A stretch of 64,000 bases of DNA from NCBI RefSeq assembly GCF_001677475.2, contig NZ_CP015229.1, one strand, 5' to 3'. Every line of letters begins with the position of its first letter. Position 1 is the stretch's first letter. Source of the DNA: Escherichia coli (GTDB lineage: Bacteria; Pseudomonadota; Gammaproteobacteria; Enterobacterales; Enterobacteriaceae). Made by a program: the position numbers and the translations under genes. The notes beneath the pieces are model-generated. The model was not told the DNA's origin and did no database searches. It saw only the letters and a list, made by a program, of their open reading frames with translations. Positions 11,401 through 28,117 of this stretch are shown in pieces.

Positions 11401-11530
11401 AATCCACTGGGGCTTTGAGGGTGTCGCGCGTAAAGGTTATATCGCTAACACTCTGACGCCAAATGTCGGTGATGCAAACTCGCAAACGCCGGAATATAAA
11501 GCGTTCTTAGTAAACATCGAGAAGGCGTAA
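8483..11530 (+). CDS. fdnG: formate dehydrogenase-N alpha subunit (selenoprotein, Tat signal); in-frame UGA selenocysteine codon at 9068..9070
   Basis: ORF-track entries 8483..9070 and 9119..11530 are in the same frame, separated only by a TGA. The junction reads ...LAVDNQARV-U-HGPTVASLAPTFGRGAMTNHW..., the FdnG selenocysteine context. N-terminal RRQFFK twin-arginine motif. Merged length 1015 aa. Confidence 0.93.
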
Positions 11531-11542
11531 GGGGGCGAACAG

Positions 11543-12427
11543 ATGGCTATGGAAACGCAGGACATTATCAAAAGGTCCGCAACTAACTCCATCACGCCGC
11601 CTTCTCAGGTGCGTGATTACAAAGCAGAAGTCGCGAAACTTATCGACGTTTCCACCTGTATCGGCTGTAAAGCCTGTCAGGTGGCGTGTTCGGAGTGGAA
11701 CGACATCCGTGATGAAGTGGGGCACTGCGTCGGGGTTTATGATAACCCCGCCGATCTGAGCGCCAAGTCCTGGACGGTGATGCGCTTTAGCGAAACCGAA
11801 CAGAACGGCAAACTGGAGTGGCTGATCCGTAAAGATGGCTGTATGCACTGTGAAGATCCGGGCTGCCTGAAGGCGTGCCCGTCTGCTGGTGCAATCATTC
11901 AGTACGCTAACGGGATTGTCGATTTCCAGTCGGAAAACTGCATCGGCTGTGGTTACTGCATTGCCGGGTGTCCGTTTAATATTCCGCGCCTCAACAAAGA
12001 GGATAACCGGGTATATAAATGCACGCTCTGCGTCGATCGCGTCAGCGTCGGCCAGGAACCGGCTTGTGTGAAAACCTGTCCGACCGGGGCTATCCACTTC
12101 GGCACCAAGAAGGAGATGCTGGAGCTGGCGGAACAGCGCGTGGCGAAACTGAAAGCGCGTGGTTACGAACATGCTGGCGTCTACAACCCGGAAGGGGTCG
12201 GTGGTACGCACGTTATGTACGTGCTGCATCACGCCGATCAGCCGGAGCTGTATCATGGTCTGCCGAAAGATCCGAAGATCGATACCTCTGTAAGCCTGTG
12301 GAAAGGCGCGTTGAAACCGCTGGCAGCGGCTGGCTTTATTGCCACTTTTGCCGGGTTGATTTTCCACTACATCGGTATTGGCCCGAATAAGGAAGTGGAC
12401 GATGACGAGGAGGATCATCATGAGTAA
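11543..12427 (+). CDS. fdnH: formate dehydrogenase-N beta subunit (4Fe-4S ferredoxin-type)
   Basis: 294 aa with several CxxCxxCxxxCP clusters ([44 protein letters not shown]...CVKTCP); RBS-spaced start 12 bp after the fdnG stop. Confidence 0.93.
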
Positions 12428-13073
12428 GTCGAAAATGATTGTGCGCACCAAATTTATTGATCGCGCCTGTCACTGGACCGTGGTGATTTGCTTCTTCCTG
12501 GTGGCGCTGTCCGGGATTTCGTTCTTCTTCCCGACGCTGCAATGGCTGACGCAAACCTTCGGTACGCCGCAGATGGGACGCATTTTGCACCCGTTCTTCG
12601 GCATTGCGATTTTCGTCGCGCTGATGTTTATGTTTGTGCGTTTTGTGCATCACAACATCCCGGATAAGAAAGATATTCCGTGGCTGTTGAACATTGTCGA
12701 AGTATTAAAAGGCAATGAGCACAAAGTGGCGGATGTTGGTAAGTACAACGCCGGGCAAAAGATGATGTTCTGGTCGATCATGAGCATGATTTTCGTGCTG
12801 CTGGTGACCGGGGTGATTATCTGGCGTCCGTACTTTGCGCAGTACTTCCCGATGCAGGTTGTTCGCTACAGCCTGCTGATCCACGCGGCTGCCGGTATCA
12901 TCCTGATCCACGCCATCCTGATCCATATGTATATGGCATTTTGGGTGAAAGGATCGATTAAAGGGATGATCGAAGGGAAGGTGAGCCGTCGCTGGGCGAA
13001 GAAACACCATCCGCGCTGGTATCGTGAAATCGAGAAGGCAGAAGCGAAAAAAGAGAGTGAAGAAGGGATATAA
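12420..13073 (+). CDS. fdnI: formate dehydrogenase-N gamma subunit (cytochrome b556)
   Basis: ORF 12378..13073 trimmed to ATG 12420 ([19 protein letters not shown]...), 217 aa. Start overlaps the fdnH stop by 8 nt. Four-helix membrane profile with conserved His residues. Confidence 0.9.
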
Positions 13074-13093
13074 TCTCTTTTGAACTTTAAGCT

Positions 13094-13124
13094 GAAAATG
13101 GCGCTGTAAAAGGCGTCATTTTCA
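13094..13124 (+). terminator. terminator-like hairpin after fdnI
   Basis: aaaatggcgc / gcgtcatttt arms (one G-U pair) around a tgtaaaag loop, about 20 bp after the fdnI stop, followed by a T-rich run. Confidence 0.45.
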
Positions 13125-13127
13125 TAT

Positions 13128-13250
13128 TGTAGACAACGTAGGCTTTGTTCATGCCGGATGCGGCGTGAACGCCTTATCCGGCCTACAAACCCTTCAAATC
13201 CAATAGATTGCAGTGAACTTGTAGACCTGATAAGCGTAGCGCATCAGGCA
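13128..13250. repeat. REP/BIME-type palindromic repeat cluster
   Basis: gccggatgcggcgtgaacgccttatccggcctaca (13153-13187) and tgtagacctgataagcgtagcgcatcaggca (13220-13250) are canonical E. coli REP palindromic units in opposite orientation, lying between convergent fdnI and yddM. Confidence 0.75.
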
Positions 13251-13301
13251 ATGTTGCGTTTGTCATCAGTTTCAAATGGCTCTTTATAAGGTGCCATTTT
13301 T

Positions 13302-13586
13302 TTATTGCGTAACCTGACGGCGTAATCGCGACACATCCACCGTTTTTTCAGCCTCTGCCAGACTCCAGGCGTTTTGCAGATTCAGCCACATTTGCGGCGA
13401 ACTGCCGATCACCACGGAAAGTTTAATTGCCATTTCTGGCGTCAAAGCTGCTTTTCCGGTCAGCAATCGGCTTGCCGTTGAGGGAGCAATTTCCATTGCT
13501 CTGGCAAACTCGCGCAGGCTGACATTAAGTTCGTCCAGTGATTCCTGAATAATGCCCCCCGGACGGGGATGATTGGCCATTTTCAT
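13302..13586 (-). CDS. yddM: XRE/HigA-like helix-turn-helix DNA-binding protein (antitoxin-like)
   Basis: ORF 13302..13664 trimmed to ATG 13586 ([57 protein letters not shown]...), 94 aa; HTH_XRE pattern. Confidence 0.8.
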
Positions 13587-13730
13587 CAGTGTCTTTACTC
13601 TCAGTAGTGTTCCTTCACTGGGAACACCATCATTGTTGTTCCTTCTTGCGCAACAATAATCCATTTAGCCATTTCATGTTGGAGAGAGTGCGATGCTGCG
13701 ACCCGATCATGGCAGTCGCAGCAAAGCCTC

Positions 13731-14741
13731 TTAGCGGCGGAAATCAATCACCATACGGCCACGGATTTTGCCTTCTTCCATCTCGGTAAAGATGGTGTTG
13801 ATGTCCGCTAACGGACGCAGGGCGACTTTCGGCACCACTTTACCTTCGGCGGCAAACTGGAAGGCTTCAGTTAAATCCTGGCGCGTGCCGACCAGCGAAC
13901 CGACCACTTCAATACCATCCAGCACAAGGCGTGGGATATCCAGGCTCATAGACTCCGGCGGCAGACCGACTGCCACAACACGCCCGCCTGCACGGACAGC
14001 ATCAACTGCCGAGTTAAACGCAGCTTTAGCTACCGCTGTCACCACCGCAGCGTGAGCGCCACCGGTTTTTTCCTGCACAATTTTGGCGGCGTCTTCAGTG
14101 CGTGAGTTAATCGCTAAATCAGCGCCCATTTCGGTTGCCAGTTTTAACTGCTCATCGTTGACATCAATGGCGATCACTTTGGCGTTAAAGACATTCTTCG
14201 CGTATTGCAGGGCGAGGTTACCCAGACCGCCAAGACCGTAGATAGCAATCCACTGCCCTGGACGAATTTTTGACAGCTTAACGGCTTTGTAGGTGGTGAC
14301 CCCCGCACAGGTAATGCTGCTGGCCGCCGCCGAGTCCAGACCATCTGGCACTTTTACCGCGTAATCGGCGACCACGATGCACTCTTCCGCCATCCCGCCA
14401 TCAACGCTGTATCCGGCATTTTTAACTGAACGGCAGAGCGTTTCGTTACCACTGTTACAGTATTCGCAATGACCGCATCCTTCGTAAAACCACGCCACGC
14501 TGGCACGATCGCCTGGTTTTAATGAGGTGACACCTGGGCCAACTTCTGCCACCACACCGATGCCTTCATGGCCCAGAATTACGCCGGTTTTGTCACCAAA
14601 ATCGCCATTCTTAACATGAAGATCGGTATGACATACACCACAACACTCCATTTTCAGCAGGGCTTCGCCATGTTTCAGTGAGCGCAGTGTTTTATCCGTA
14701 ACGTCAACATGATGATCCTTCGTAACAACTGCAGCCTTCAT
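13731..14741 (-). CDS. adhP: zinc-dependent alcohol dehydrogenase, propanol-preferring
   Basis: ORF trimmed to ATG 14741 ([14 protein letters not shown]...), 336 aa. AGGAGG RBS immediately upstream. Zn-ADH motifs GHEGIGVV and CGHCEYC. Confidence 0.93.
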
Positions 14742-16967: not shown

Positions 16968-17183
16968 TTAAAGCGTAGGGTGCTGGCCACTGACCACATA
17001 ATTGATCGTTTGCTGGTAGATATCACTGAGGATGTCGTTATCAGAAGCTTCCACCCATTTGGTCAGCTCCATGAGAATGTCATCTTCAGTGACAACACCG
17101 TGCTCTGCCCGAAGGCCTTGCTCAATGGCATTAACCAGAGCGGGTTCTGCTGTTGAATTTTCTGCCTGATAATAAGTAAACAT
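16968..17183 (-). CDS. bdm: biofilm-dependent modulation protein (71 aa)
   Basis: ORF 16968..17246 trimmed to ATG 17183 (MFTYYQAENSTAEPALVNAIEQG...). Confidence 0.88.
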   Translation of the reverse strand: MFTYYQAENSTAEPALVNAIEQGLRAEHGVVTEDDILMELTKWVEASDNDILSDIYQQTINYVVSGQHPTL

Positions 17184-17277
17184 AGTGATTCTCCGTGTCT
17201 GTGTATTTATGGTGTCTGCTACGGATCGCAGATTTATAAAGCACATTCAGCATGGCAAATATTTGCCGCTTCGTTGT

Positions 17278-17291
17278 TAAGATTAGTCCTG
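17278..17291. promoter_or_regulatory. RcsB-box-like motif (TAAGATTAGTCCTG) in the bdm/osmC divergent region
   Basis: 11 of 14 positions match the RcsB box consensus TAAGAATAATCCTA as I recall it; osmC and bdm are known Rcs targets. Confidence 0.35.
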
Positions 17292-17527
17292 GTTGATGAG
17301 TTTTATATTTTAACACTATGATATTGATAGGGATTGTTATTGGTGTGAATCGATTAATATTGATACAATATCTTTTGAGTCATATATTTCCTGTTATCTA
17401 TTGTGGGAATTTAATTTAAGTACAGAGATAATGTTTTCGCCGGATTTCATTCGGAATATCCTGCTTATCCTCGTGCTGTTTCTCACGTAGTCTATAATTT
17501 CCTTTTTAAGCCCACAGGAGAGCAACA

Positions 17528-17956
17528 ATGACAATCCATAAGAAAGGTCAGGCACACTGGGAAGGCGATATCAAACGCGGGAAGGGAACAGTATCCACCG
17601 AGAGCGGCGTGCTGAACCAACAGCCGTATGGATTTAACACGCGTTTTGAAGGCGAAAAAGGAACCAACCCTGAAGAACTGATTGGCGCAGCGCATGCCGC
17701 ATGTTTCTCAATGGCGCTTTCATTAATGCTGGGGGAAGCGGGATTCACGCCAACATCGATTGATACCACCGCCGATGTGTCGCTGGATAAAGTGGATGCC
17801 GGTTTTGCGATTACGAAAATCGCACTGAAGAGTGAAGTTGCGGTGCCGGGTATTGATGCCTCTACCTTTGACGGCATCATCCAGAAAGCAAAAGCAGGAT
17901 GTCCGGTTTCACAGGTACTGAAAGCGGAAATTACGCTGGTATTAGACGTCAACTAG
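17528..17956 (+). CDS. osmC: osmotically inducible peroxiredoxin OsmC, with its last residues replaced by IS-derived codons
   Basis: MTIHKKGQAHWEGDIKRGKGTV... through ...VLKAEITL, then VLDVN-stop read from the IS end. The expected native C-terminus DYQLKS-stop is found intact at 20355..20375, on the far side of the IS. Confidence 0.85.
   Translation: MTIHKKGQAHWEGDIKRGKGTVSTESGVLNQQPYGFNTRFEGEKGTNPEELIGAAHAACFSMALSLMLGEAGFTPTSIDTTADVSLDKVDAGFAITKIALKSEVAVPGIDASTFDGIIQKAKAGCPVSQVLKAEITLVLDVN
17932..17938. repeat. target-site duplication (TACGCTG), left copy
   Basis: The same 7-mer is found at 20348..20354 directly flanking the other IS end. Confidence 0.55.
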
Positions 17957-18004
17957 TTTTGCCGACTCGCGCCAACTATACTGGCCGCACCCTTCAGGGC
18001 GACA

Positions 18005-18760
18005 TCAAGTCGCGCTTGTTACTGCCTTCGCTGTCTTTTTCCTGTAGCTTTCCCCTTTCAGTTCGAACATATATCCGTGATGGATCAGCCTGTCTGCCGC
18101 AGCCACCGCCATAGTCTCATCCACGAAGATGCTGCCCCACATGCTGAACGGATGGTTACTGGTTATCACCAGGCTCCCACGTTCATAGCGATGCGCTATT
18201 AACTCGAACAGCACACCCGTTTCGGCACTATCGCGTTTGACATAGCCAAGATCATCCACCACTATCACCCGGTAGCGATCCAGTTTCAGTAGCAGCTCAT
18301 TCAGTTTCAACTGAGCTCTGGCTTTACGTAGTTCCTGCAACAGCTCTCCTGCGCTGTAGAACCGGGCCCGGTAGCCCTGACCTACTACGCCATCCACGAT
18401 CGCTGCCGCCAGATGGCTTTTCCCCAACCCGCTGGCTCCGAACAGCAGAACGTTTTCTCCTGCATCAACCCAGTCTGTCGTTTCACAGAGTTGCCGGAAC
18501 TGAGCTCCATTCAGTTCCGGCACCTGACTGAAGTCGTATTCGCTCAGCGTTTTGGCAACTGGCAACCGGGCCTCCTTTTTATAACGACGCAGTTTTTCAC
18601 TCTCGCGCCACAGGAGTTCTTCATTGCATAGCGTCAGAAGATAGCGCGATGGTGTCCAGCCTTCTGCCAGCGCTCGTTTTTCCAGAGCGTGCCATTCAGC
18701 TCCAACTCGTGTCAGGCGTAGTTTACGCAGGCTATGTTCAAGGTGATGGATATTGCTCAC
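18005..18760 (-). CDS. istB: IS21-family helper ATPase IstB
   Basis: 251 aa with Walker A GASGLGKSHLA and Walker B VIVVDDLG; start overlaps the istA stop (ATGA), typical for IS21. Confidence 0.88.
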   Translation of the reverse strand: MSNIHHLEHSLRKLRLTRVGAEWHALEKRALAEGWTPSRYLLTLCNEELLWRESEKLRRYKKEARLPVAKTLSEYDFSQVPELNGAQFRQLCETTDWVDAGENVLLFGASGLGKSHLAAAIVDGVVGQGYRARFYSAGELLQELRKARAQLKLNELLLKLDRYRVIVVDDLGYVKRDSAETGVLFELIAHRYERGSLVITSNHPFSMWGSIFVDETMAVAAADRLIHHGYMFELKGESYRKKTAKAVTSAT

Positions 18761-20256
18761 TGCGAACCTCCCTTGCCACGCAGTAGTTGCTCATAACTGC
18801 TCAGGTTATGCTGTATCACATTGACTACCGGCAACGCCTTTTCTTTTATACCCAGGAAGCGCATCAGCCGGTGCAGATCCACGTTTCCCGGGGTATTCAG
18901 CATCTGCTCCATACCTTTTGCCACGACTGAGATATCGTCGTATCCTGCAGCCAGTTTCAGGGCATGTACCATCAGCCTTCCTGCCATATCGGGCTCCAGA
19001 TGATTACATAAGCGACGCCACAGCCTCCGCCATTCATCGTCCGGCAGGATGTCATTTCTCAGCGTTGCATGGCAGAACGCACCGGGCTTTTTTGCCAGAC
19101 TGTCGATCACATGTCGGAAGTCGATACGACGGGCCCGCGTCTTCCCTTTTTCTGGTCTGACGCGAGGGCAGCTCATGACCTCGCTGCTGCCAACGTAACA
19201 GCTCAGACGATCGTCCCATAACCTGACCCGTAACAGTTGACCTACAAGCCGGGAAGGTACGCTGTAGACGACGTGCTTCACATTGATGGTACTGCTGCGA
19301 CTAACCCTCACAGTCAGCTCATCATAGTCAGCACTGCGACGAAGCGGCAGCGGTTTCAGATGAAGACGTTCTTCCTTGACCAGATCCTGATTGTTACGGT
19401 TGTGCCGCATAACCTGCTGAGTGATGAAGGCCTGATATTCTTCTATGGTGCTGAAGTCGTTACTGCCCCGCAGTATCAGCGCCTGACAGATACGCCTTTT
19501 CAGATGTCCGTGGGCACTTTCAACCGAGCCATTTTCGTGGCCCCGACCGGCATTATTGTGTACGCCCTGCATTCCGTAGTGCTGACAGAGAGTAGCATAA
19601 CGCTCAGTCAGCTCGCGGCGTCCATCTTCGCCCTGTTGTTTCCATGCTGCCCTCAGGCTGTCCGTTTTATGTTCTACCGGCACTCCGCCCAGTTGTCCGA
19701 GGGCTTCCTGCAGGCCTTCAGCCAGAGCAGAGAAGCTCTCACCACCCAGAACAACCCGCATCCAGCTCCAGTGGCTCCATTCCAGACGGAAGTGATACAA
19801 CTTATGCGCCAACAACTTACCGGCGATGGTGACAACTACACCTTTCAGTTCAGTAAAGTCCGACAGGCCTCGCAGGCCGGGCTGATGTTGCTGGCGGAAC
19901 ATGACCTCCTGCTCTGTACCATACTGTAGTTTCCATTCGCGAACCCGCCGTTGCATTGTTCTTCGAAGGCTGTTGGGGTACTGGCCGGGATATTTATCCT
20001 GTAGCATCTCCAGTAGAGTTGTTGGTGTCAGAGCCGGCCTCTCTTTCAACAGAGGAACAAGCATGCTGTCCCACACAGCTTCCAGAGGATCTTTGCGTGT
20101 GCGCCAGTGCCGAACACTGTTTTTTGCCCACTCTCCTTTTTCGATCCGACGACCAGAACGGACTGAGATACCAGCCTTCATGGCCGAGATATGCTGAGTT
20201 ATACCTTTCTTACGCTGAGTCATATAGTAACTGACCTGAGAAGTATTGAGCGTCAC
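18757..20256 (-). CDS. istA: IS21-family transposase IstA
   Basis: 499-aa ORF with N-terminal HTH and a DDE-type integrase core (HTDSLRAAW...GHENGSVESAHGHLKR); an alternative start is the internal Met at MTQRKKG. Confidence 0.85.
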   Translation of the reverse strand: MTLNTSQVSYYMTQRKKGITQHISAMKAGISVRSGRRIEKGEWAKNSVRHWRTRKDPLEAVWDSMLVPLLKERPALTPTTLLEMLQDKYPGQYPNSLRRTMQRRVREWKLQYGTEQEVMFRQQHQPGLRGLSDFTELKGVVVTIAGKLLAHKLYHFRLEWSHWSWMRVVLGGESFSALAEGLQEALGQLGGVPVEHKTDSLRAAWKQQGEDGRRELTERYATLCQHYGMQGVHNNAGRGHENGSVESAHGHLKRRICQALILRGSNDFSTIEEYQAFITQQVMRHNRNNQDLVKEERLHLKPLPLRRSADYDELTVRVSRSSTINVKHVVYSVPSRLVGQLLRVRLWDDRLSCYVGSSEVMSCPRVRPEKGKTRARRIDFRHVIDSLAKKPGAFCHATLRNDILPDDEWRRLWRRLCNHLEPDMAGRLMVHALKLAAGYDDISVVAKGMEQMLNTPGNVDLHRLMRFLGIKEKALPVVNVIQHNLSSYEQLLRGKGGSQ

Positions 20257-20347
20257 GCCATTTCCTGTTGGATCATGTAAATGACACTCAGGTTACAAAA
20301 CCGGCCAGAATAATCGGCGCCAGGCGGACTGAGTTATTGTCGTCTCA

Positions 20348-20354
20348 TACGCTG
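20348..20354. repeat. target-site duplication (TACGCTG), right copy
   Basis: See left copy; followed by the displaced native osmC 3' end gattaccagttgaaatcgtaa (DYQLKS-stop). Confidence 0.55.
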
Positions 20355-20381
20355 GATTACCAGTTGAAATCGTAAAGCGTT

Positions 20382-20403
20382 GCCGGATGACGCGTCATCC
20401 GGC
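20382..20403. terminator. perfect 22-bp palindrome (gccggatgacg/cgtcatccggc), likely bidirectional terminator
   Basis: Exact inverted repeat between the native osmC stop and the convergent dehydrogenase gene stop (20410). Confidence 0.5.
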
Positions 20404-20409
20404 GAACAC

Positions 20410-21180
20410 TTACTGCGCTACCCAACCGCCATCCATATTCCACGCCACCCCACGCACTTGTGCTGCCGCATCCGAACAGAGAAACAGCGCCAGTTCACCC
20501 AGTTGTTGCGGAGTCACAAATTCACGAGAAGGCTGTTTTTCTGCCAGTAAGGCGTCACGCGCGCTTTCCGCATCTTCGCCTTGCGCAATGCGCTTATCAA
20601 TCTGCTGTTGTACCAGCGGCGTCAGCACCCAGCCAGGGCAGAGCGCGTTGCAGGTAATACCCGTCTGCGCAGTTTCCAGAGCAATGGTCTTTGTGAGTCC
20701 CACCACGCCATGTTTTGCCGCAACATAAGCTGATTTGTCTTTCGACGCTACCAGCCCATGCACAGAGGCAATGTTAATGATCCGACCCCAGTTACGAGTG
20801 CGCATTTCTGGCAGTGCCAGACGCGTGGTGTGAAAGACAGAAGAGAGATTGATGGCGATAATGGCGTTCCATTTTTCTACAGGGAAAGATTCAACCGGGG
20901 AGACATACTGGATCCCGGCGTTATTCACCAGAATGTCCACACCGCCAAATTCCCGCCGTGCGTAGGCCATCATGTTGATAATTTGCGATTCATCGCTGAG
21001 GTCTGCCTCATGATAGCCAGGCGTTTTACCCATACGAGAAACCGCATTGATTGCCGCGTCAACATCACCGAAGCCGTTGAGGATCACTTGCGCGCCAGCG
21101 TTTGCCAGTGTCTGAGCAATACCGAGTCCGATACCGCTGGTGGACCCCGTCACCAGCGCAGTTTTACCTTGTAAATTCAT
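20410..21180 (-). CDS. short-chain dehydrogenase/reductase, 3-hydroxybutyrate dehydrogenase-like
   Basis: 256 aa; TGSTSGIGLGIA cofactor motif, NNAG, and the SxnYxxxK catalytic pattern (SAYVAAKHG). Overall resemblance to BdhA-type D-3-hydroxybutyrate dehydrogenases. Confidence 0.8.
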   Translation of the reverse strand: MNLQGKTALVTGSTSGIGLGIAQTLANAGAQVILNGFGDVDAAINAVSRMGKTPGYHEADLSDESQIINMMAYARREFGGVDILVNNAGIQYVSPVESFPVEKWNAIIAINLSSVFHTTRLALPEMRTRNWGRIINIASVHGLVASKDKSAYVAAKHGVVGLTKTIALETAQTGITCNALCPGWVLTPLVQQQIDKRIAQGEDAESARDALLAEKQPSREFVTPQQLGELALFLCSDAAAQVRGVAWNMDGGWVAQ

Positions 21181-21191
21181 GATGATTTTCC

Positions 21192-22583
21192 TTAGACAAT
21201 GCCGGTGGTGTAGTACACGCCGATGATAAACAGCACGGCCAGACTTTTAATGATCGTAATTGCGAAGATGCCGCCGTAAGCCTGACGGTGACTCAGCCCA
21301 GTAATTGCCAGCAGGGTGATCACAGCGCCGTTATGGGGCAATGTATCCATGCCGCCACTGGCCATAGATGCCACGCGGTGAAAAACTTCCAGTGGAATAT
21401 TGGCAGCGTGCGCAGCGGCAATAAAAGTGTCGGACATAGCCGCAAGAGCAATACTCATCCCGCCGGACGCTGAACCGGTAATTCCGGCAAGTGTGGTGAT
21501 GCTGATGGCTTCGTTGAGTAATGGATCAGGAATGGCGGCCAGCGCCTTTGAGAGCACCAGAAAACCGGGTAGGGCGGCGATAACCGCACCGAAGCCATAT
21601 TCTGAGGCGGTGTTCATCGCAGCCAGAATTGCGCCGCCTACCGCTGTACGGCTTCCTTCTGCCAGTCTTCCATGAATATTGCGATATCCAAAAATCACTA
21701 CCAGCAAAATTCCGGCAATGAGCGCAGCTTCGACGGCCCAGATTGCGGTGATTTTGGCGACATCTGTGGTAATCGGGGCGGTAAGTCCCGGCAACTCCAG
21801 TTGGTGGCTCGCACCGTACCAAACAGGGATCCACCAGGTAAACAACAAGTTCAACAGCCCCACCAGAATCAATGGTGAAATCGCAATGAGTGGGTTCGGT
21901 AAATTGATGTTATCTGGTGTTTCAGGTTCATTAAGTAACTCTGTGCCGTAACCTTCATTTTTTGCCTGCGCTTTACGACGCTGCCGCTCCAGATAGATAA
22001 GCCCGACGGCAATGATAAACAGTGAACCAATAAGCCCCAGCCACGGCGCGGCCCAGGCGTTGGTGCCAAAGAAACTGGTAGGAATAATGTTCTGAATTTG
22101 TGGCGTGCCGGGCAGAGCGTCCATAGTAAAAGAGAATGCTCCCAGGGCCACCGTTGCCGGTATAAGTCGTTTTGGGATGTTACTCTGGCGGAACAGTTCA
22201 GCCGCGAACGGATAAACGGCAAATGCCACCACAAACAGCGACACTCCGCCATAGGTGAGTAATGCACATACCAGCACAATCACCGGAATCGCATGCCGCC
22301 GGCCGAGAATGTTGATTGCAGCAGCGACAATCGAACGAGAAAATCCTGAAAGTTCAATCAGTTTTCCGAACACGGCCCCGAGCAGAAACACCGGGAAGTA
22401 CAATTTCACGAAGCCGACCATTTTTTCCATGAACAGGCCGGTAAATGCTGGGCCAACGGCCCCCGGATCGGTGACAAGAACAGCGCCTAATGCTGCGATG
22501 GGGGCAAAAAGGATAACGCTGTATCCGCGATAGGCTGCCAGCATTAGCAGCCCAAGCGCGGCAAGGGCGATTAATACACTCAT
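21192..22583 (-). CDS. GntP-family hydroxy-acid/H+ permease
   Basis: 463 aa, highly hydrophobic with GntP-like organisation; gene order resembles Bacillus yxjC-scoAB-bdh. Confidence 0.8.
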   Translation of the reverse strand: MSVLIALAALGLLMLAAYRGYSVILFAPIAALGAVLVTDPGAVGPAFTGLFMEKMVGFVKLYFPVFLLGAVFGKLIELSGFSRSIVAAAINILGRRHAIPVIVLVCALLTYGGVSLFVVAFAVYPFAAELFRQSNIPKRLIPATVALGAFSFTMDALPGTPQIQNIIPTSFFGTNAWAAPWLGLIGSLFIIAVGLIYLERQRRKAQAKNEGYGTELLNEPETPDNINLPNPLIAISPLILVGLLNLLFTWWIPVWYGASHQLELPGLTAPITTDVAKITAIWAVEAALIAGILLVVIFGYRNIHGRLAEGSRTAVGGAILAAMNTASEYGFGAVIAALPGFLVLSKALAAIPDPLLNEAISITTLAGITGSASGGMSIALAAMSDTFIAAAHAANIPLEVFHRVASMASGGMDTLPHNGAVITLLAITGLSHRQAYGGIFAITIIKSLAVLFIIGVYYTTGIV

Positions 22584-22628
22584 CGGGACTCCTCAATATC
22601 GTTGTTATAGTGGGTACAGCGAGAGAAG

Positions 22629-23552
22629 TTATGGTTTAAGGGCGAAGCGAAGTTGATGTTCCCGACGCTGCTGGATGTACTGCTTCCGCGATTCATCCCA
22701 GCAGTAAAATCCCTGACCGCTACGTACGCCGATGTCTCCACGTTCCACTTTTTCGGCAACTAATGACATCATGTCGCTGCCAGTCGCTAGTTCAGGGAGC
22801 AGATGGCGACAAATATCCTGCACCGTCGAAAGTCCGGTCATGTCGGCGGCCTCCAGCGGGCCGACCATGGCATAACGTCGCCCAAGCGAGGCGCGCATCA
22901 CCTGATCCACCACTTCTGCACTGGCGATGCCGCTTTTTACGATATGCAGGGCTTCACGCAACAGTGCAAATTGCAGACGGTTGCCGACAAATCCTGGCGC
23001 AGCGCGATCCAGCAACACTGCTTCCAGTTGCAGTGACACAAGCAAGTGTTGCAGCCAGTGCAAATGCTTTGGCTCGGTAACGCTGCCGGGGATAATCTCC
23101 ACAAGTGGAATGAAGTGCGGCGGATGCCAGAAATGGGCGATCAGCAGTCGTTGCGGGTAGCGCATCTTCGCGGCCAGATCATCGGGCGGCAGACCGCTGG
23201 TATTGCTGGCGACAATGGCCTCAGGAGAAATAAGCGTTTCAAGCTCGGTATATAATGCGTGTTTTAGTTCAAGTCGCTCCGGGATCGCCTCAATCAGTAG
23301 TTGCGAGTCGGCGATGTCTGCAAGAGAAGTCGTGCCGTGCAGACGTTTAAGCACATTCTCTTTTTCCGGGGCAGTAAACTGTTCGCAGCTAATCAGCTCA
23401 TCAAGAATTCCGCCTGCAACTACGTGGATTTCTGCAATCCGGCTCTGCTCGGTATCGTACAGCCAGATATCATGACCAAAGCGGGCGAAATGAGTGGCAA
23501 TCCCCACGCCCATCAATCCGGCGCCCAGTACCGCAAATTGTTCAGTTTGCAT
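22629..23552 (-). CDS. 3-hydroxyacyl-CoA dehydrogenase-family NAD-dependent dehydrogenase (subfamily with the HPP..IPLVE motif)
   Basis: 307 aa; N-terminal Rossmann fold ([12 protein letters not shown]) and [14 protein letters not shown]. That motif is the variant I associate with family members acting on free 3-hydroxy acids (L-carnitine or L-gulonate 3-dehydrogenase type) rather than classic Hbd. Confidence 0.75.
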
Positions 23553-24746
23553 GGTGTTCTCCTGTGGTTCTTTCCAGTGTCAGCGCCACGCCCTGACCGC
23601 CACCGACGCACAGCGTCGCCAGCCCTTTTTGCGCATTACGTCGCGCCATTTCATAAATGAGAGTGACCAGAATGCGGCAACCGGAAGCGCCAATAGGATG
23701 CCCAAGTGCGATTGCGCCGCCGTTAACATTCACTTTGTCGCAATCCCAGTTCAGTTCGTCGCCAACGGCCAGCGCCTGCGCTGCGAAAGCCTCGTTGGCT
23801 TCAATAAGATCAATATCTTCCAGCGTCCATCCGCAACGCTTAAGACATTCGCGGGAGCGGCGACCGGACCAATGCCCATAAAGGCAGGATCGACGCCAGA
23901 AACGGCATAACCAGCCACCCGAGCCAGCACAGGGAGACCAAGTTCGGCAGCTTTGCTGGCGCGCATTAACATGACTGCGGCGGCACCATCATTGATGGAA
24001 GAAGCATTTCCTGCGGTGACGCTTCCCGCCCCCGGAAGAAAGGCCGGTTTCAGTTGTGCTAGTTTTTCCAGTTGCGTCCCGGAACGTGGTTGTTCGTCGG
24101 TATTTACCCTGCGTGGTGGTTTTTTACCTTGTGGTACGCTGACCGGAGTAATTTCGTCTGCAAAGCGCCCGGCTTCCATTGCGGCAGCGGCTTTTTGCTG
24201 AGAACGTAGCGCGAATGTGTCCTGTCGCTCGCGACTGATGGCATATTTTTGCGCCAGGTTTTCTGCAGTAATGCCCATGTGGTAATCATTGAAAGCGTCC
24301 CATAGTCCGTCATGCACCACGCTGTCTTTCATGCTGGTATGCCCGAGGCGTAAACCTGCCCGTGCGCCATCAATAAAATAGGGCGCGTTACTCATGCTTT
24401 CCTGGCCACCTGCGATAATTATCTGTGCATCACCGCAACGGATCGCCTGTACGGCCTGGTGTACTGCTTTCAGACCGGAACCACATACCAGGTTGATGGT
24501 AACGGCGGGTGTATCGTGGCTTAACCCGGCTTTGAGCGCCGATTGCCGTGCCGGATTTTGTCCGCTTCCGGCAGTCAGGACCTGACCAAAAATCACTTCG
24601 TCGATCTGTTCTGCTGCAAGTGCTGTTTTCTCCAGCAATGAACGGATGGTGGCAGCGCCGAGATCAACCGCAGAAAGTGGGGCGAGAGCGCCATGAAAAC
24701 AGCCAATCGGTGTGCGCGTAGCGGCAACAATAACAACGTCCTGCAT
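23542..24746 (-). pseudogene. acetyl-CoA acetyltransferase (thiolase) gene interrupted by a 1-nt frameshift
   Basis: The N-terminal ORF (23751..24746; MQDVVIVAATRTPIG...GIGPV) and the C-terminal ORF (23542..23733; ...[25 protein letters not shown]...) are both thiolase but in different frames. Manual translation shows the thiolase frame resumes ([29 protein letters not shown]...) just after GIGPV, so the shift lies near plus-strand 23850-23862. Confidence 0.75.
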
Positions 24747-24755
24747 GGTGATTCC

Positions 24756-25412
24756 TCAGTTGAATTGCATTTCCGGGACATGTTCCGGCACAAACAACTT
24801 ACCGGCGGTTTTGGCGATGATTTCCGCAACGCTGATTCCCGGCGCGCGCTCGCGCAGAATGAAAGCTCCGTCAGCAATTTCCAGCAGAGCAAGGTCGGTT
24901 AAGACGCGTTTGATGCATCCGGCGCCGGTCAACGGAAGGGTACAGTCAGGAAGCAGTTTGGATTCGCCGGATTTGGAGGCGTGGGTCATTACCACAATAA
25001 TATTCTCGGCACCGGCAACCAGATCCATGGCACCGCCCATGCCTTTAACCATCTTGCCGGGGATCATCCATGAGGCAATGTTGCCATTCACATCCACTTC
25101 AAATACGCCAAGTACAGTCAGATCCACATGACCGCCACGGATCATGGCGAATGATTGCGCCGAATCGAAAATTGCCGCGCCTTTCCGCGCGGTAACGGTT
25201 TGTTTACCGGCATTAATCATGTCGGCGTCCAGTTCGTCTTCCGTAGGAAATGCGCCCATTCCCAGCAAACCGTTTTCTGACTGCAACATCACATCCATCC
25301 CGTCAGGAATGTAGTTTGCCACCAGGGTCGGGATACCAATGCCGAGATTGACGTAATAGCCATCGCGCAATTCGCGGGCGACTCGCATCGCCATTTGTTC
25401 ACGGGTTAACAT
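24756..25412 (-). CDS. 3-oxoacid CoA-transferase subunit B (ScoB/AtoA/DhcB-like)
   Basis: 218 aa; conserved ...SENGLLGMGAFP... region with the catalytic Glu of family I CoA-transferase beta subunits. Confidence 0.85.
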   Translation of the reverse strand: MLTREQMAMRVARELRDGYYVNLGIGIPTLVANYIPDGMDVMLQSENGLLGMGAFPTEDELDADMINAGKQTVTARKGAAIFDSAQSFAMIRGGHVDLTVLGVFEVDVNGNIASWMIPGKMVKGMGGAMDLVAGAENIIVVMTHASKSGESKLLPDCTLPLTGAGCIKRVLTDLALLEIADGAFILRERAPGISVAEIIAKTAGKLFVPEHVPEMQFN

Positions 25413-25414
25413 GG

Positions 25415-26122
25415 TCAGGCTCCTTTGCGGCTAAGGGTGCGTTGTTCAATGCGTTTTTCAAATTGCCCCTGAATGACGCGATTAACAAAAATCCCCGGGG
25501 TATGGATAGCGGCAGGATCAAGTTCACCAGGTGGCACTATTTCTTCCACTTCCACCACGGTGATTTTTCCGGCAGCCGCCATCAGTGGGTTGAAGTTTTG
25601 CGCGGTATGACGATAAATCACGTTGCCGTACCAGTCGGCTTTCCAGCCTTTGACCAGGGCAAAATCACCGGTGATAGCCTGTTCCATGATGTACGGGCGA
25701 CCGTTGAATTCGCGGACTTCTTTCCCTTCGGCAACGGGAGTACCGTAACCGGTGGCAGTAAAGAACGCCGGGATACCCGCGCCGCCTGCGCGCAGTTGTT
25801 CTGCCAGGGTTCCTTGTGGTGTGAGAATCGCCTCCAGTTCGCCGTTAAGCACCTGTTTTTCAAACAAAGCATTCTCGCCAACATAAGAAGCGACGACTTT
25901 ACGGATCTGTCGGCTTTCCAGTAGTACATCCAGTCCAAAACCATCTACGCCACAGTTATTGGAAACCACCGTTAATCCGGTTACTCCACGGTGGCGAACT
26001 TCAGCAATCAGATTCTCCGGGATGCCGCACAGGCCAAAACCTCCTGCCAGAATCGTCATCTCATTGGTAAGTCCTTCAAGCGCCTCGTGATACGTAGCGA
26101 CCCGTTTATCCAACCCAGCCAT
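25415..26122 (-). CDS. 3-oxoacid CoA-transferase subunit A (ScoA/AtoD/DhcA-like)
   Basis: 235 aa; MAGLDKRV... and the [10 protein letters not shown] motif typical of alpha subunits; 2-bp spacing to subunit B. Confidence 0.85.
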
Positions 26123-26263
26123 ACAGTTGCCCTCCAGTTGTCCTTTTCAACATCATTAAGGGCAAAAAATGATTTGTTAATTTTAAATTTGTGACTCATT
26201 CATTTGTATTATTTATCAATACAATGTTAATTAAATGTATTCAGTAGGTTAACGGGGTGCCAG

Positions 26264-27154
26264 ATGAAAATGAGCATCAAACAGTTACGCGCGTTTTTAG
26301 CGGTAGCTCACACTCTGAACTTTGCCCATGCCAGTGAACGGCTGAATATGTCGCAGCCTGCGCTAAGTCTTGCCATTAAAGGACTGGAAGATGCCTTAGG
26401 GGGCGCTTTACTGCTGCGTACTACGCGAAAAGTGACATTAACCCAGGAGGGGGAAACGCTATTGTCGATGGCACGGCCTTTGCTGGCTGACTGGGATAAC
26501 ACTGAGGAGGCCATGCGTCAGCGATTCACGCTCAGGCGGGGCAAAGTCTCGGTGGCAGCGATGCCGTCATTTGCAGCCAACGTTCTGCCTCCGGTGCTGA
26601 AAACCTTCCGCGATTGTTATTCAGGGATTAATGTCACCGTGCACGATGTGGTGAATGAGCAGGTGATCGAAATGGTGAGCGAAGGGCGTGTGGAGATGGG
26701 TATTGCCTTTGAACCTGACTATTGCGGCCATGTGCATTTTACCCCACTGGGCGTGGATCGGTTTGTCGCTATTGTTCCAGCCGATTCACGACTGGCAAAT
26801 CGGCAACGCGTGAGTTGGCGGGATTTGCTGACGCTCGATTTTATCACCCTCCAGCGACCGTCAGCCGTCAGGTTGATGCTGGAGGAGCAGTTGGCACAAA
26901 GTGGAACGCAACTGGAAGTGTCGCTGGAAAGCCATCAACTGGTTACGGTTGGGCGGCTGGTGGCAAACGGTTTGGGAGGAAGCGCTGTGCCTGCGCTGTG
27001 CCGCAGGCAGATGAGCGAACTGGGCGCAGTGTGTCTGGAACTGGATAATCCAGTGATTGAGCGACGAGTAGGCGTACTGCGTTCGTCACACCATAAGCTT
27101 TCTACTGCGGCGCAGGCGTTGATGGAAACGTTAAAAAAAACCTATGACGCATAA
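26264..27154 (+). CDS. LysR-family transcriptional regulator, divergent from the CoA-transferase operon
   Basis: 296 aa; N-terminal HTH (IKQLRAFLAVAHTLNFAHASERLNMSQPALSLAIKGLEDALG) plus a LysR substrate-binding domain; the start may be the ATG at 26270. Confidence 0.85.
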   Translation: MKMSIKQLRAFLAVAHTLNFAHASERLNMSQPALSLAIKGLEDALGGALLLRTTRKVTLTQEGETLLSMARPLLADWDNTEEAMRQRFTLRRGKVSVAAMPSFAANVLPPVLKTFRDCYSGINVTVHDVVNEQVIEMVSEGRVEMGIAFEPDYCGHVHFTPLGVDRFVAIVPADSRLANRQRVSWRDLLTLDFITLQRPSAVRLMLEEQLAQSGTQLEVSLESHQLVTVGRLVANGLGGSAVPALCRRQMSELGAVCLELDNPVIERRVGVLRSSHHKLSTAAQALMETLKKTYDA

Positions 27155-27190
27155 CGTTTCCGCAGACATGCAATAGCCGGATGCCGCGTC

Positions 27191-28117
27191 CTACAGCGCC
27201 CGCCAGCAACGGATCTCACGTCCGTCAGCCCGCGTCGTTAATGATTGCCGGACTTCGCATCCGCTGGTTGCAAGGGGGCAACGTTCGCGGAAAAAACAGC
27301 CTTGTGGCAACGTGCGGTTTCCTGGTAGATCCGTTTTACGTAATGCCCATTCTTCCTCCAGCGGTTTATCAATGGCGGGGAGGGAATCCAGCAATAATCG
27401 GGTGTAGGGATGTGCCGGAGCTGTCAGCACCTGTTGCGCGTCTCCTAGTTCCACAATCTGTCCGAGATACATCACCGCCACCCGATCGCTCATATGACGT
27501 ATCACCGAGACATTGTGTGAAATCAGCACATAAGTCAGCTCGCGATTTTCCTGTAGCGTTACCAGTAAATTGAGGATCTGCGCCTGCACGGAGATATCCA
27601 GCGCCGAGGTTGGTTCATCAAGCACAATCACGTCAGGCTGCGAAGAGAGTGCTCTGGCAATGGCGATACGTTGCCGCTGCCCGCCTGAGAACGCATGAGG
27701 CAAGCGGTCGAGATACTCCGGACGAATACCCACCTGCACAGCCAGCTCCTCTGCCAACGCTCGCCGCTGTTGTTCACTACTACGCTTAGCAATCCAGAGC
27801 GGTTCCGTGATGATGCGCCACACCGGTAAGCGCGGATTAAGCGAAGAGAGCGGGTCCTGAAACACCATCTGCATAATGCGTTGTGATCCTGAACGGATGT
27901 ACTGCCCGTGGCTTGGTTGCAGCATACCCATTAAAAGCTGTGCGAGGGTGCTTTTGCCGCAGCCTGACTCACCTACGATCCCTAAGGTTTCACCACGACG
28001 GATCTGTAAATCAATACCATTGATGGCATGAACATGTTCCGTAGTTTTACCAAGCCAGTTTTTTCGGGCCGGGAAATTGATATGGACGTCGCGTAACGTT
28101 AATAACGTGTCAGACAC
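27191..28117 (-). CDS. ddpF: D,D-dipeptide ABC transporter ATP-binding protein
   Basis: ORF trimmed to the GTG at 28117 (V/MSDTLLTLRDVHINF...), preceded by AGGAGG; 308 aa; Walker A GESGCGKST. Confidence 0.88.
   Translation of the reverse strand: MSDTLLTLRDVHINFPARKNWLGKTTEHVHAINGIDLQIRRGETLGIVGESGCGKSTLAQLLMGMLQPSHGQYIRSGSQRIMQMVFQDPLSSLNPRLPVWRIITEPLWIAKRSSEQQRRALAEELAVQVGIRPEYLDRLPHAFSGGQRQRIAIARALSSQPDVIVLDEPTSALDISVQAQILNLLVTLQENRELTYVLISHNVSVIRHMSDRVAVMYLGQIVELGDAQQVLTAPAHPYTRLLLDSLPAIDKPLEEEWALRKTDLPGNRTLPQGCFFRERCPLATSGCEVRQSLTTRADGREIRCWRAL

Follow-up and report, generated by a model that had tools for sequence, protein, structure and literature searches.

3-Hydroxybutyrate is a ketone body of the host and the monomer of bacterial polyhydroxybutyrate, and to our knowledge Escherichia coli K-12 cannot use it. 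As the nearest described system we take the PA1998-PA2005 region of Pseudomonas aeruginosa PAO1, made up of dhcR, dhcAB, atoB, atoE, bdhA, the PA2004 permease and hbcR. The present analysis concerns a 64,000-nt window of E. coli NZ_CP015229.1 (GCF_001677475.2), "the window" being the whole stretch of DNA studied, and within it seven genes between osmC and ddpF. These genes are read as a LysR-controlled catabolic operon of six genes that would convert external 3-hydroxybutyrate and acetoacetate into acetyl-CoA, and we put the probability of this reading at roughly 70%.

In P. aeruginosa, dhcR-dhcAB-atoB corresponds to PA1998-PA2001 (PMC6235884), and bdhA with its sigma-54 regulator is cited in PMC13390443 as needed for growth on (R)-3-hydroxybutyrate. 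The E. coli locus resembles PA1998-PA2005 in that a LysR gene diverges from a two-subunit family-I CoA-transferase and a thiolase, and in that bdhA lies beside a permease gene. Compared by description of gene order, it differs in having all its genes in one operon under LysR alone, without an AtoE-type transporter or a sigma-54 activator, and with an additional dehydrogenase from the 3-hydroxyacyl-CoA dehydrogenase (HAD) family. Pseudomonas luteola and Pseudomonas oryzihabitans hold an intermediate form, in which a rearranged permease-bdhA-transferase-thiolase set is accompanied by both the HAD gene and a sigma-54 activator; their permeases are 77–81% identical to that of the window, and the BdhA of P. 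oryzihabitans is 73% identical.

The atoDAEB operon of K-12 shares with this locus a two-subunit CoA-transferase followed by an acetoacetyl-CoA thiolase, serving acetoacetate. However, the transferase of the window is of the succinyl-CoA:3-ketoacid CoA-transferase (SCOT) type and not of the AtoDA type, a LysR regulator takes the place of AtoSC, and two dehydrogenases and a different permease are added. A single enzyme from a comparable locus, CF3HBD of Citrobacter freundii, has been studied as a promiscuous lactam cyclase (PMC6265244); its surrounding operon was not described, and the C. freundii complex carries the whole cluster at the same junction. The cluster, itself uncharacterised, is an ordinary example of a familiar type of pathway; only its HAD partner has some novelty.

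Gene Content and Layout of the Operon

Six closely packed open reading frames (ORFs) on the minus strand and one LysR gene on the plus strand fill the interval between the ends of osmC and ddpF:

20410–21180, minus strand: bdhA, a short-chain dehydrogenase (SDR) of 256 aa, assigned from curated models and solved homologues
21192–22583, minus strand: multi-span permease of 463 aa, putative 3-hydroxybutyrate transporter on the basis of gene linkage
22629–23552, minus strand: HAD-family NAD dehydrogenase of 307 aa, proposed (S)-3-hydroxybutyrate dehydrogenase
23542–24746, minus strand: acetoacetyl-CoA thiolase gene with its start at 24746, frameshifted, either a pseudogene or the source of a truncated 331-aa product
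24756–25412, minus strand: 3-oxoacid CoA-transferase subunit B, 218 aa (TIGR02428)
25415–26122, minus strand: 3-oxoacid CoA-transferase subunit A (TIGR02429)
26123–26263, no strand: divergent promoter/operator region of 141 bp, A+T-rich, with conserved blocks
26264–27154, plus strand: LysR-type transcriptional regulator of 296 aa, divergent from the operon

In the direction of transcription the order is scoA-scoB-thiolase-HAD-permease-bdhA. The gaps are 2, 9, −11 (in the intact thiolase allele), 45 and 11 nt, so small that the six genes are taken to form one operon. In the proposed pathway the permease would import 3-hydroxybutyrate, and BdhA would oxidize the (R)-form with NAD+ to acetoacetate, while the HAD-family enzyme would do the same with (S)-3-hydroxybutyrate, most likely as the free acid. 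The SCOT-type transferase would then convert acetoacetate to acetoacetyl-CoA, probably taking CoA from succinyl-CoA, and the thiolase would cleave acetoacetyl-CoA into two acetyl-CoA. The assignments of BdhA, transferase and thiolase come from homology to assayed or solved enzymes; the transported substrate, the substrate and stereochemistry of the HAD enzyme and the CoA donor are suggested by context and residue comparison.

An earlier note on this DNA, made from the letters alone, had described seven genes between osmC and ddpF that are absent from K-12. All seven ORFs are present, and in K-12 MG1655 only 55 bp separate the stop codons of osmC and ddpF, with no such cluster at the junction; the direct adjacency of osmC was mistaken, the insertion sequence ISEc10 lying between osmC and the cluster. 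Its naming of a BdhA-like SDR, of CoA-transferase subunits B and A and of a divergent LysR regulator held up: curated models of 3-hydroxybutyrate dehydrogenase recognise the SDR, those of 3-oxoacid CoA-transferase recognise both subunits, in each case above the cut-off, and the gene at 26264–27154 (plus strand) encodes a full-length LysR protein. The thiolase gene also lies where it was reported, but is not intact, a frameshift having been overlooked. The proposed Hbd-family dehydrogenase has the HAD fold and catalytic residues, yet falls below the cut-off of every Hbd model. Database searches assigned the proteins to no unrelated characterised pathway. The route that the note had sketched, from uptake through oxidation to a 3-oxo acid and CoA transfer to thiolysis, agrees for 3-hydroxybutyrate and acetoacetate with the matches of the SDR, the transferase and the intact thiolase allele and with the conservation of the gene set across genera.

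BdhA and the CoA-Transferase

At 371 bits with PRK12429 and 343.5 bits with TIGR01963, the SDR clears the curated cut-offs of 258 and 307, respectively. Along its full 256 residues it shares 87% identity with C. freundii CF3HBD (PDB 5YSS); identity to Pseudomonas putida HBDH (PDB 2Q2Q) is 70%, and the SDR catalytic motif Tyr-x3-Lys is present in the segment SAYVAAKHG. Dehydrogenase activity of CF3HBD on 3-hydroxybutyrate has been measured (PMC6265244), and SDR 3-hydroxybutyrate dehydrogenases are (R)-specific (PMC13390443, PMC6265244). Homology to these assayed and solved enzymes identifies BdhA as a predicted NAD-dependent (R)-3-hydroxybutyrate dehydrogenase (EC 1.1.1.30).

Subunit A of the CoA-transferase reaches 244.5 bits with TIGR02429 (cut-off 128.5) and subunit B 325.4 bits with TIGR02428 (cut-off 243.6), while the AtoD model NF007394 gives subunit A 195.4 bits, under its cut-off of 315. 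The best solved matches of both subunits are the succinyl-CoA:3-ketoacid transferases 3rrl and 3cdk (Helicobacter pylori, Bacillus subtilis), with E values from 1e-73 to 1e-91. For subunit A the comparison stands at about 1e-90 with SCOT A subunits against 1e-49 with E. coli AtoD, and for subunit B at 6e-76 with the SCOT B subunit against 6e-64 with the E. coli AtoDA counterpart. The SENG motif with its catalytic Glu occurs in subunit B within the segment MLQSENGLLGMG. By homology to assayed and solved enzymes, the pair is assigned as a putative family I two-subunit transferase of the SCOT type, and its CoA donor is probably succinyl-CoA.

These two assignments bear on the possibility that the cluster really serves different short-chain 3-hydroxy or 3-oxo acids, such as 3-hydroxyvalerate, 3-oxovalerate or other (S)-3-hydroxy acids, with 3-hydroxybutyrate handled only as a side activity. 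SCOT and thiolases are generally known to accept 3-oxo acids of C5–C6, and neither the HAD enzyme nor the permease has a characterised close relative, both of which leave room for such substrates. However, the close orthologues of BdhA include enzymes that were assayed with 3-hydroxybutyrate, and its product acetoacetate is the canonical substrate of SCOT; a wider or different substrate range of this kind is quite improbable.

The Thiolase and Its Frameshift

The intact thiolase allele measures 1206 nt and encodes 401 aa in PCN033 and O145 RM9154 (401 aa also in IAI1). It matches acetyl-CoA acetyltransferase structures over its full length, with the segments that carry the catalytic His and Cys in frame in PCN033, O145 and IAI1, and homology assigns it as a predicted acetoacetyl-CoA-type thiolase. 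Against PCN033 and O145 RM9154, the window lacks one base (A, minus strand) between 23855 and 23856. The frame shifts after codon 297 and ends at a stop at 23751, which gives a product of 331 aa. NCBIfam thiolase models align with residues 1–306 only of this product, and the GHP and LCVGGGQG segments, which contain the catalytic His and Cys, are out of frame and readable in another frame. As it stands, this gene therefore encodes no full-length acetoacetyl-CoA thiolase that has both the N-terminal Cys and the C-terminal pair of His and Cys.

An 81-nt probe spanning the deletion site matched at 98.8% in all 230 cluster-bearing complete genomes and at 100% in none, and so the deletion is private to this strain. 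The site is not in a homopolymer run. Another 27 K-12 genes compared in the window are each full-length and in a single tblastn piece, the sole exception being osmC, which is cut by ISEc10. Because these genes align whole, a general assembly error was set aside as an unlikely cause and a true mutation is likelier than general assembly noise. A single sequencing error is a possible source of the frameshift, a genuine mutation the more likely one.

In the intact allele the start of the HAD gene overlaps the thiolase stop, and expression of the HAD gene may drop in this strain owing to the frameshift. The final thiolysis would here need another thiolase, for example AtoB, YqeF or FadA. This raises the alternative that in this strain the operon is a decaying relic, in which the frameshift and its polarity on HAD, permease and bdhA have ended growth on 3-hydroxybutyrate. 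The loss of the catalytic His and Cys, the approximately 200 nt left untranslated ahead of the HAD start, the loss of the cluster from about 96% of E. coli genomes and the splitting of single cluster genes in the assemblies of Citrobacter amalonaticus (thiolase) and Pluralibacter gergoviae (HAD) all point in this direction. Yet the other six genes are intact, with few substitutions relative to the PCN033 allele, and E. coli is known to have other acetoacetyl-CoA thiolases; moreover, the missing base may be a sequencing error, even at a non-homopolymer site among whole genes. On balance, decay to the point of lost function appears somewhat unlikely.

Some further variation was seen in the cluster genes. 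PCN033 differs from the window within the thiolase gene at three places (two substitutions and the 1-nt indel), and in O145 RM9154, 24 of the 41 differences across the cluster fall within the 1.2-kb thiolase gene, at window 23913–24657, which looks like a recombination patch inside the cluster. The thiolase of C. amalonaticus (positions 7804–9008 of its locus) and the HAD gene of P. gergoviae (positions 9001–9907 of its locus) each align in two to three tblastn pieces, which suggests frameshifts, by gene decay or by assembly errors.

The Permease

The permease has no NCBIfam match and no Pfam match at E ≤ 0.001; at E ≤ 10 only DUF3169 appears (0.03). The earlier note had called it a GntP-family permease, and "GntP family permease" is also its PGAP label. 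This placement was not upheld by the library searches, nor by BLASTP against K-12 GntP, in which the alignment has E = 0.003 over 85 residues. One source labels a Klebsiella homologue "D-beta-hydroxybutyrate permease". The protein is 81–95% identical across Enterobacterales and Pseudomonas, and its gene is directly upstream of bdhA in every locus that holds both. This linkage to bdhA suggests that the permease would import 3-hydroxybutyrate.

The Second Dehydrogenase

The Pfam domains 3HCDH_N and 3HCDH are recorded for homologues of the second dehydrogenase, and the protein lies below every NCBIfam cut-off. The best model is FHMPC_DH NF042925, at 220.5 bits against a cut-off of 500, followed among the Hbd models by PRK05808 (181 bits, cut-off 408), PRK07819 (161, cut-off 319) and PRK07530 (151, cut-off 420). 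Its best-scoring solved relative is FHMPC dehydrogenase (4OM8), an enzyme of free acids, at 170 bits and about 31% identity, and clostridial Hbd gives 139 bits and about 32% identity. Ser119, His140, Glu152 and Asn191 are invariant in the family alignment and equivalent to the catalytic Ser117, His138, Glu150 and Asn188 of 4KUG. The Asp that ends the second beta-strand fits use of NAD+.

The residues that contact CoA are another matter. In Hbd structures, Lys54 and Lys56, which form the clamp roof, and Asn221 contact CoA (PMC10470551, PMC11476959), whereas the window enzyme has Cys56, Gln58 and Arg226 in their places. Gly224-Arg225-Arg226 is invariant in the family, with the second Arg at the position of Asn221, and the Arg-Arg pair could bind a carboxylate. 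Both 4OM8 and CsTfD, an (S)-3-hydroxy-5-oxohexanoate dehydrogenase, share with the window enzyme the fold, the catalytic Ser/His/Glu/Asn and the NPPH..IP..E motif. CsTfD, a HAD-family enzyme whose substrates are free acids and which favours (S)-3-hydroxybutyrate over the (R)-form, likewise lacks the CoA contacts Lys56 and Asn221 (PMC10470551). The subfamily is nevertheless distinct from 4OM8, which lacks the invariant Arg-Arg, is only about 31% identical and stands in a different genomic context. The entries PDB 9JHE, 9JHY and 9JI0 were considered as an (S)-3-hydroxybutyrate dehydrogenase and rejected, being Faecalibacterium Hbd, a CoA-ester enzyme.

Genomic neighbours of the homologues were compared across species. 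Where the HAD protein is at least 60% identical, both CoA-transferase genes are present in all 16 species loci, and permease and bdhA in 15 of them. Nine further species loci have the HAD gene beside the permease gene and no transferase within 9 kb (Paraburkholderia, a metagenome-assembled genome of Burkholderiaceae, Massilia and Megasphaera); five of these, all Paraburkholderia, also have BdhA. On one metagenome contig a 49%-identical HAD gene overlaps a 67%-identical permease gene. The HAD gene is thus linked in genomes to the permease gene rather more than to the thiolase gene. Kurthia, a Firmicute, has a HAD of 40% identity, next to it BdhA (365 bits) and then transferase A and B. In Pantoea the operon and the same operator blocks occur without the HAD gene, which makes the HAD an optional add-on to the core pathway.

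The same data can be set against a variant of the pathway in which the HAD enzyme is instead a genuine (S)-3-hydroxybutyryl-CoA dehydrogenase: CoA would be loaded onto (S)-3-hydroxybutyrate by the transferase, and the HAD would then oxidize the thioester to acetoacetyl-CoA. Its identity to clostridial Hbd equals that to any free-acid enzyme, several NCBIfam models of 3-hydroxyacyl- or 3-hydroxybutyryl-CoA dehydrogenases match strongly although below threshold, in E. coli and Citrobacter its start codon and the stop of the thiolase gene overlap, and in some Firmicutes it lies beside CoA-transferase genes. However, the Lys54/Lys56 clamp and the Asn221 of Hbd are missing, all models of CoA dehydrogenases stay under their cut-offs, and the overlap with the thiolase is not kept in Klebsiella or Pseudomonas. 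The nine loci that pair HAD and permease, five of them with BdhA, have no transferase nearby, and the substrates described for SCOT-type transferases (EC 2.8.3.5) are 3-oxo acids and not 3-hydroxy acids. Oxidation at the CoA level is therefore considered unlikely, if still a serious competitor.

HAD-family enzymes are (S)-specific (PMC10470551), and two dehydrogenases for two stereoisomers would fit both the stereospecificities of the two families and their recurrent pairing around the same permease. The missing CoA contacts, the Arg-Arg pair, the linkage to the permease and the 3-oxo acids described for SCOT-type transferases speak for a free (S)-3-hydroxy acid, in the simplest case (S)-3-hydroxybutyrate. 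The (S)-enantiomer is accordingly the most likely substrate of the HAD enzyme, probably in free-acid form. The fuller proposal is that it is an NAD-dependent free-acid (S)-3-hydroxybutyrate dehydrogenase from an uncharacterised Gly-Arg-Arg-Tyr subfamily and the stereochemical partner of BdhA, that the operon would consume both enantiomers, and that whether a strain of gut Enterobacteriaceae carries it would help to decide its use of ketone bodies; this we hold tentatively, with slightly more doubt than belief.

Lone homologues of the HAD were also seen. Those of about 50% identity in Paraburkholderia/Burkholderia (one locus, with the HAD at 9001–9900, and about 25 more) keep Gly-Arg-Arg-Tyr and lack any cluster gene within 9 kb, and there was no evident metabolic partner near the HAD in the single locus whose neighbours were inspected. 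The wider HAD subfamily may act on another substrate.

Weighing of the Pathway

Degradation of carnitine through 3-dehydrocarnitine, in the style of the dhcAB-atoB system of P. aeruginosa, had been offered in the earlier note as an alternative. The HAD enzyme would then serve as L-carnitine dehydrogenase. The arrangement of LysR, divergent two-subunit CoA-transferase and thiolase does resemble dhcR-dhcAB-atoB (PMC6235884), and carnitine dehydrogenases belong to the HAD family and appear among the weak matches. The two L-carnitine dehydrogenase models, though, reach only 112 bits (NF005471, cut-off 414) and 142 bits (NF005716, cut-off 592), and over residues 3–240 only. The cluster encodes no BKACE cleavage enzyme, no enzyme of the carnitine dehydrogenase type and no carnitine/betaine transporter, and its permease is in every case found together with a bona fide 3-hydroxybutyrate dehydrogenase. 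The enzymes specific to carnitine are encoded in Pseudomonas by a separate operon, caiX-cdhCAB (PMC5806209). A paper on carnitine in C. amalonaticus was discarded as support because it concerns other genes. Carnitine as the substrate is given negligible weight.

Several points weigh against the conversion of 3-hydroxybutyrate and acetoacetate to acetyl-CoA as proposed here. As encoded in the window, the pathway is left incomplete by the thiolase frameshift. In the libraries searched, the permease is without a characterised relative. Homology alone leaves the substrate of the HAD enzyme unsettled, FHMPC dehydrogenase and Hbd being about equally distant from it. Among the homologues of 45–59% identity, 26 of 37 have no cluster gene within 9 kb, and for this reason the wider HAD subfamily is not tied to the pathway. 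Finally, no experiment on the cluster in E. coli was found in the literature, and searches by function or by RefSeq protein accession returned no publication on it in E. coli or Enterobacteriaceae.

Regulation

The LysR protein aligns over its full length with many LysR models, below all equivalog cut-offs, and PF00126 and PF03466 are recorded for its orthologues in Citrobacter and Klebsiella. The position of its gene is conserved in Enterobacterales and Azomonas. Blocks in the operator region are conserved across seven genera (E. coli, Citrobacter, Klebsiella, Phytobacter, Serratia, Pluralibacter and Pantoea), and include repeated TTAAC half-sites, a long A/T-rich block and AAATGA..GTCACAAA..AAAATTAACAAATCA. 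This conservation is consistent with a candidate LysR operator within the 141-bp region. One weak sigma-70-like match lies at 26180–26152 on the minus strand; a scan for consensus promoters and terminators returned no more sites than in shuffled sequence, and an Rfam scan of window 17000–28000 returned no RNA family. The LysR ORF has 296 aa in the window, IAI1 and O145. In PCN033 the gene (positions 9918–10829 of its locus) has a 1-nt deletion near the 3′ end (window 27141), resulting in an ORF of 303 aa.

Distribution and Ancestry

Of 5426 complete E. coli genomes, 230 (about 4%) carry at least 80% of the cluster, always on the chromosome and in one copy each. Carriers include IAI1, O145:H28 outbreak strains, PCN033 and ECC-1470. 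In the C. freundii complex all seven genes likewise occupy the osmC/ddpF junction, and the ancestry of the locus was judged by comparing amino-acid identities between E. coli and Citrobacter for the cluster and for the flanking core genes:

Cluster, regulator to thiolase: LysR 85%, CoA-transferase A 93%, CoA-transferase B 94%, thiolase 84%
Cluster, remaining genes: HAD 82%, permease 95%, BdhA 88%
Flanks: OsmC 94%, DdpF 80%, DdpD 80%, DdpC 86%, DdpB 94%, MaeA 95%

The ranges are 82–96% for the cluster genes and 80–95% for the flanking genes. Since cluster and flanks are equally diverged at a shared site, the locus probably goes back to an ancestor of Escherichia and Citrobacter and was probably lost from about 96% of sequenced E. 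coli. A recent horizontal acquisition from Citrobacter was rejected on the same ground, and the acquired accessory island that the earlier note had implied gives way to an ancestral locus lost by most strains.

In Klebsiella pneumoniae the seven genes are found together away from this junction, beside budRABC. There (positions 3434–14450 of its locus) the cluster adjoins the acetoin/2,3-butanediol genes, namely a LysR regulator, acetolactate decarboxylase, acetolactate synthase and an SDR, so that two C4 pathways lie side by side. The cluster also occurs in Serratia, Phytobacter, Pluralibacter and Azomonas, and the gene set recurs in part in Firmicutes. The 9-kb flanks of the C. amalonaticus locus yielded no ddpF orthologue, and the identity of its BdhA is as low as 58%.

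The Flanks of the Cluster

The features next to the operon are the following:

17528–17956, plus strand: osmC, a flanking gene outside the operon, its 3′ end replaced by insertion sequence; residues 1–137 are 100% identical to K-12 OsmC
About 17940–20349, minus strand: ISEc10 (IS21 family), 99.9% identical to annotated ISEc10 copies
18005–18760 and 18757–20256, minus strand: istB and istA, respectively, within ISEc10
20382–20403, no strand: REP-like palindrome GCCGGATGAC-GC-GTCATCCGGC, between the convergent osmC and bdhA, read from the sequence
20382–20396, no strand: left 15-nt direct repeat GCCGGATGACGCGTC, REP-like, the first 15 nt of the palindrome
27176–27190, no strand: right 15-nt direct repeat GCCGGATGCCGCGTC, abutting the ddpF stop codon and identical to the left copy at 14 of 15 positions

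ISEc10 is inserted in osmC six codons ahead of the stop and cuts off these last six codons, so that OsmC ends in VLDVN* in the window versus DYQLKS* in K-12. The target duplication CGCTGG stands on either side of the element (17934–17939 and 20350–20355), and the displaced 3′ remnant of osmC is at 20350–20375. ISEc10 was found at this osmC site in no complete RefSeq E. coli genome, the matches spanning the element only. The palindrome at 20382–20403 may be a bidirectional terminator for the osmC and bdhA transcripts; the consensus scan reported no terminator-like site at these positions. The empty site of K-12 has one copy of the 15-mer followed by 34 nt that are absent from the window, and recombination between the 15-nt repeats could delete the cluster.

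Farther away, window 3266–7111 has genes for two leucine-rich-repeat proteins of full length (417 and 421 aa) and for an intact OmpC/F-like porin of 366 aa, where the K-12 counterpart has the yddJ pseudogene, yddK and a short yddL. Positions 4329–4963 and 5290–6827 have no megablast match to the K-12 region.

Implications

The analysis fills an annotation gap and leaves the understanding of such pathways unchanged. As a candidate (S)-specific dehydrogenase of free acids, the HAD enzyme could be tested cheaply, and the LysR/operator pair could become a biosensor for 3-hydroxybutyrate or acetoacetate. The operon would serve as a simple genetic marker of 3-hydroxybutyrate use, and a strain-variable 3-hydroxybutyrate operon would account for why E. 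coli lineages differ in their range of carbon sources.

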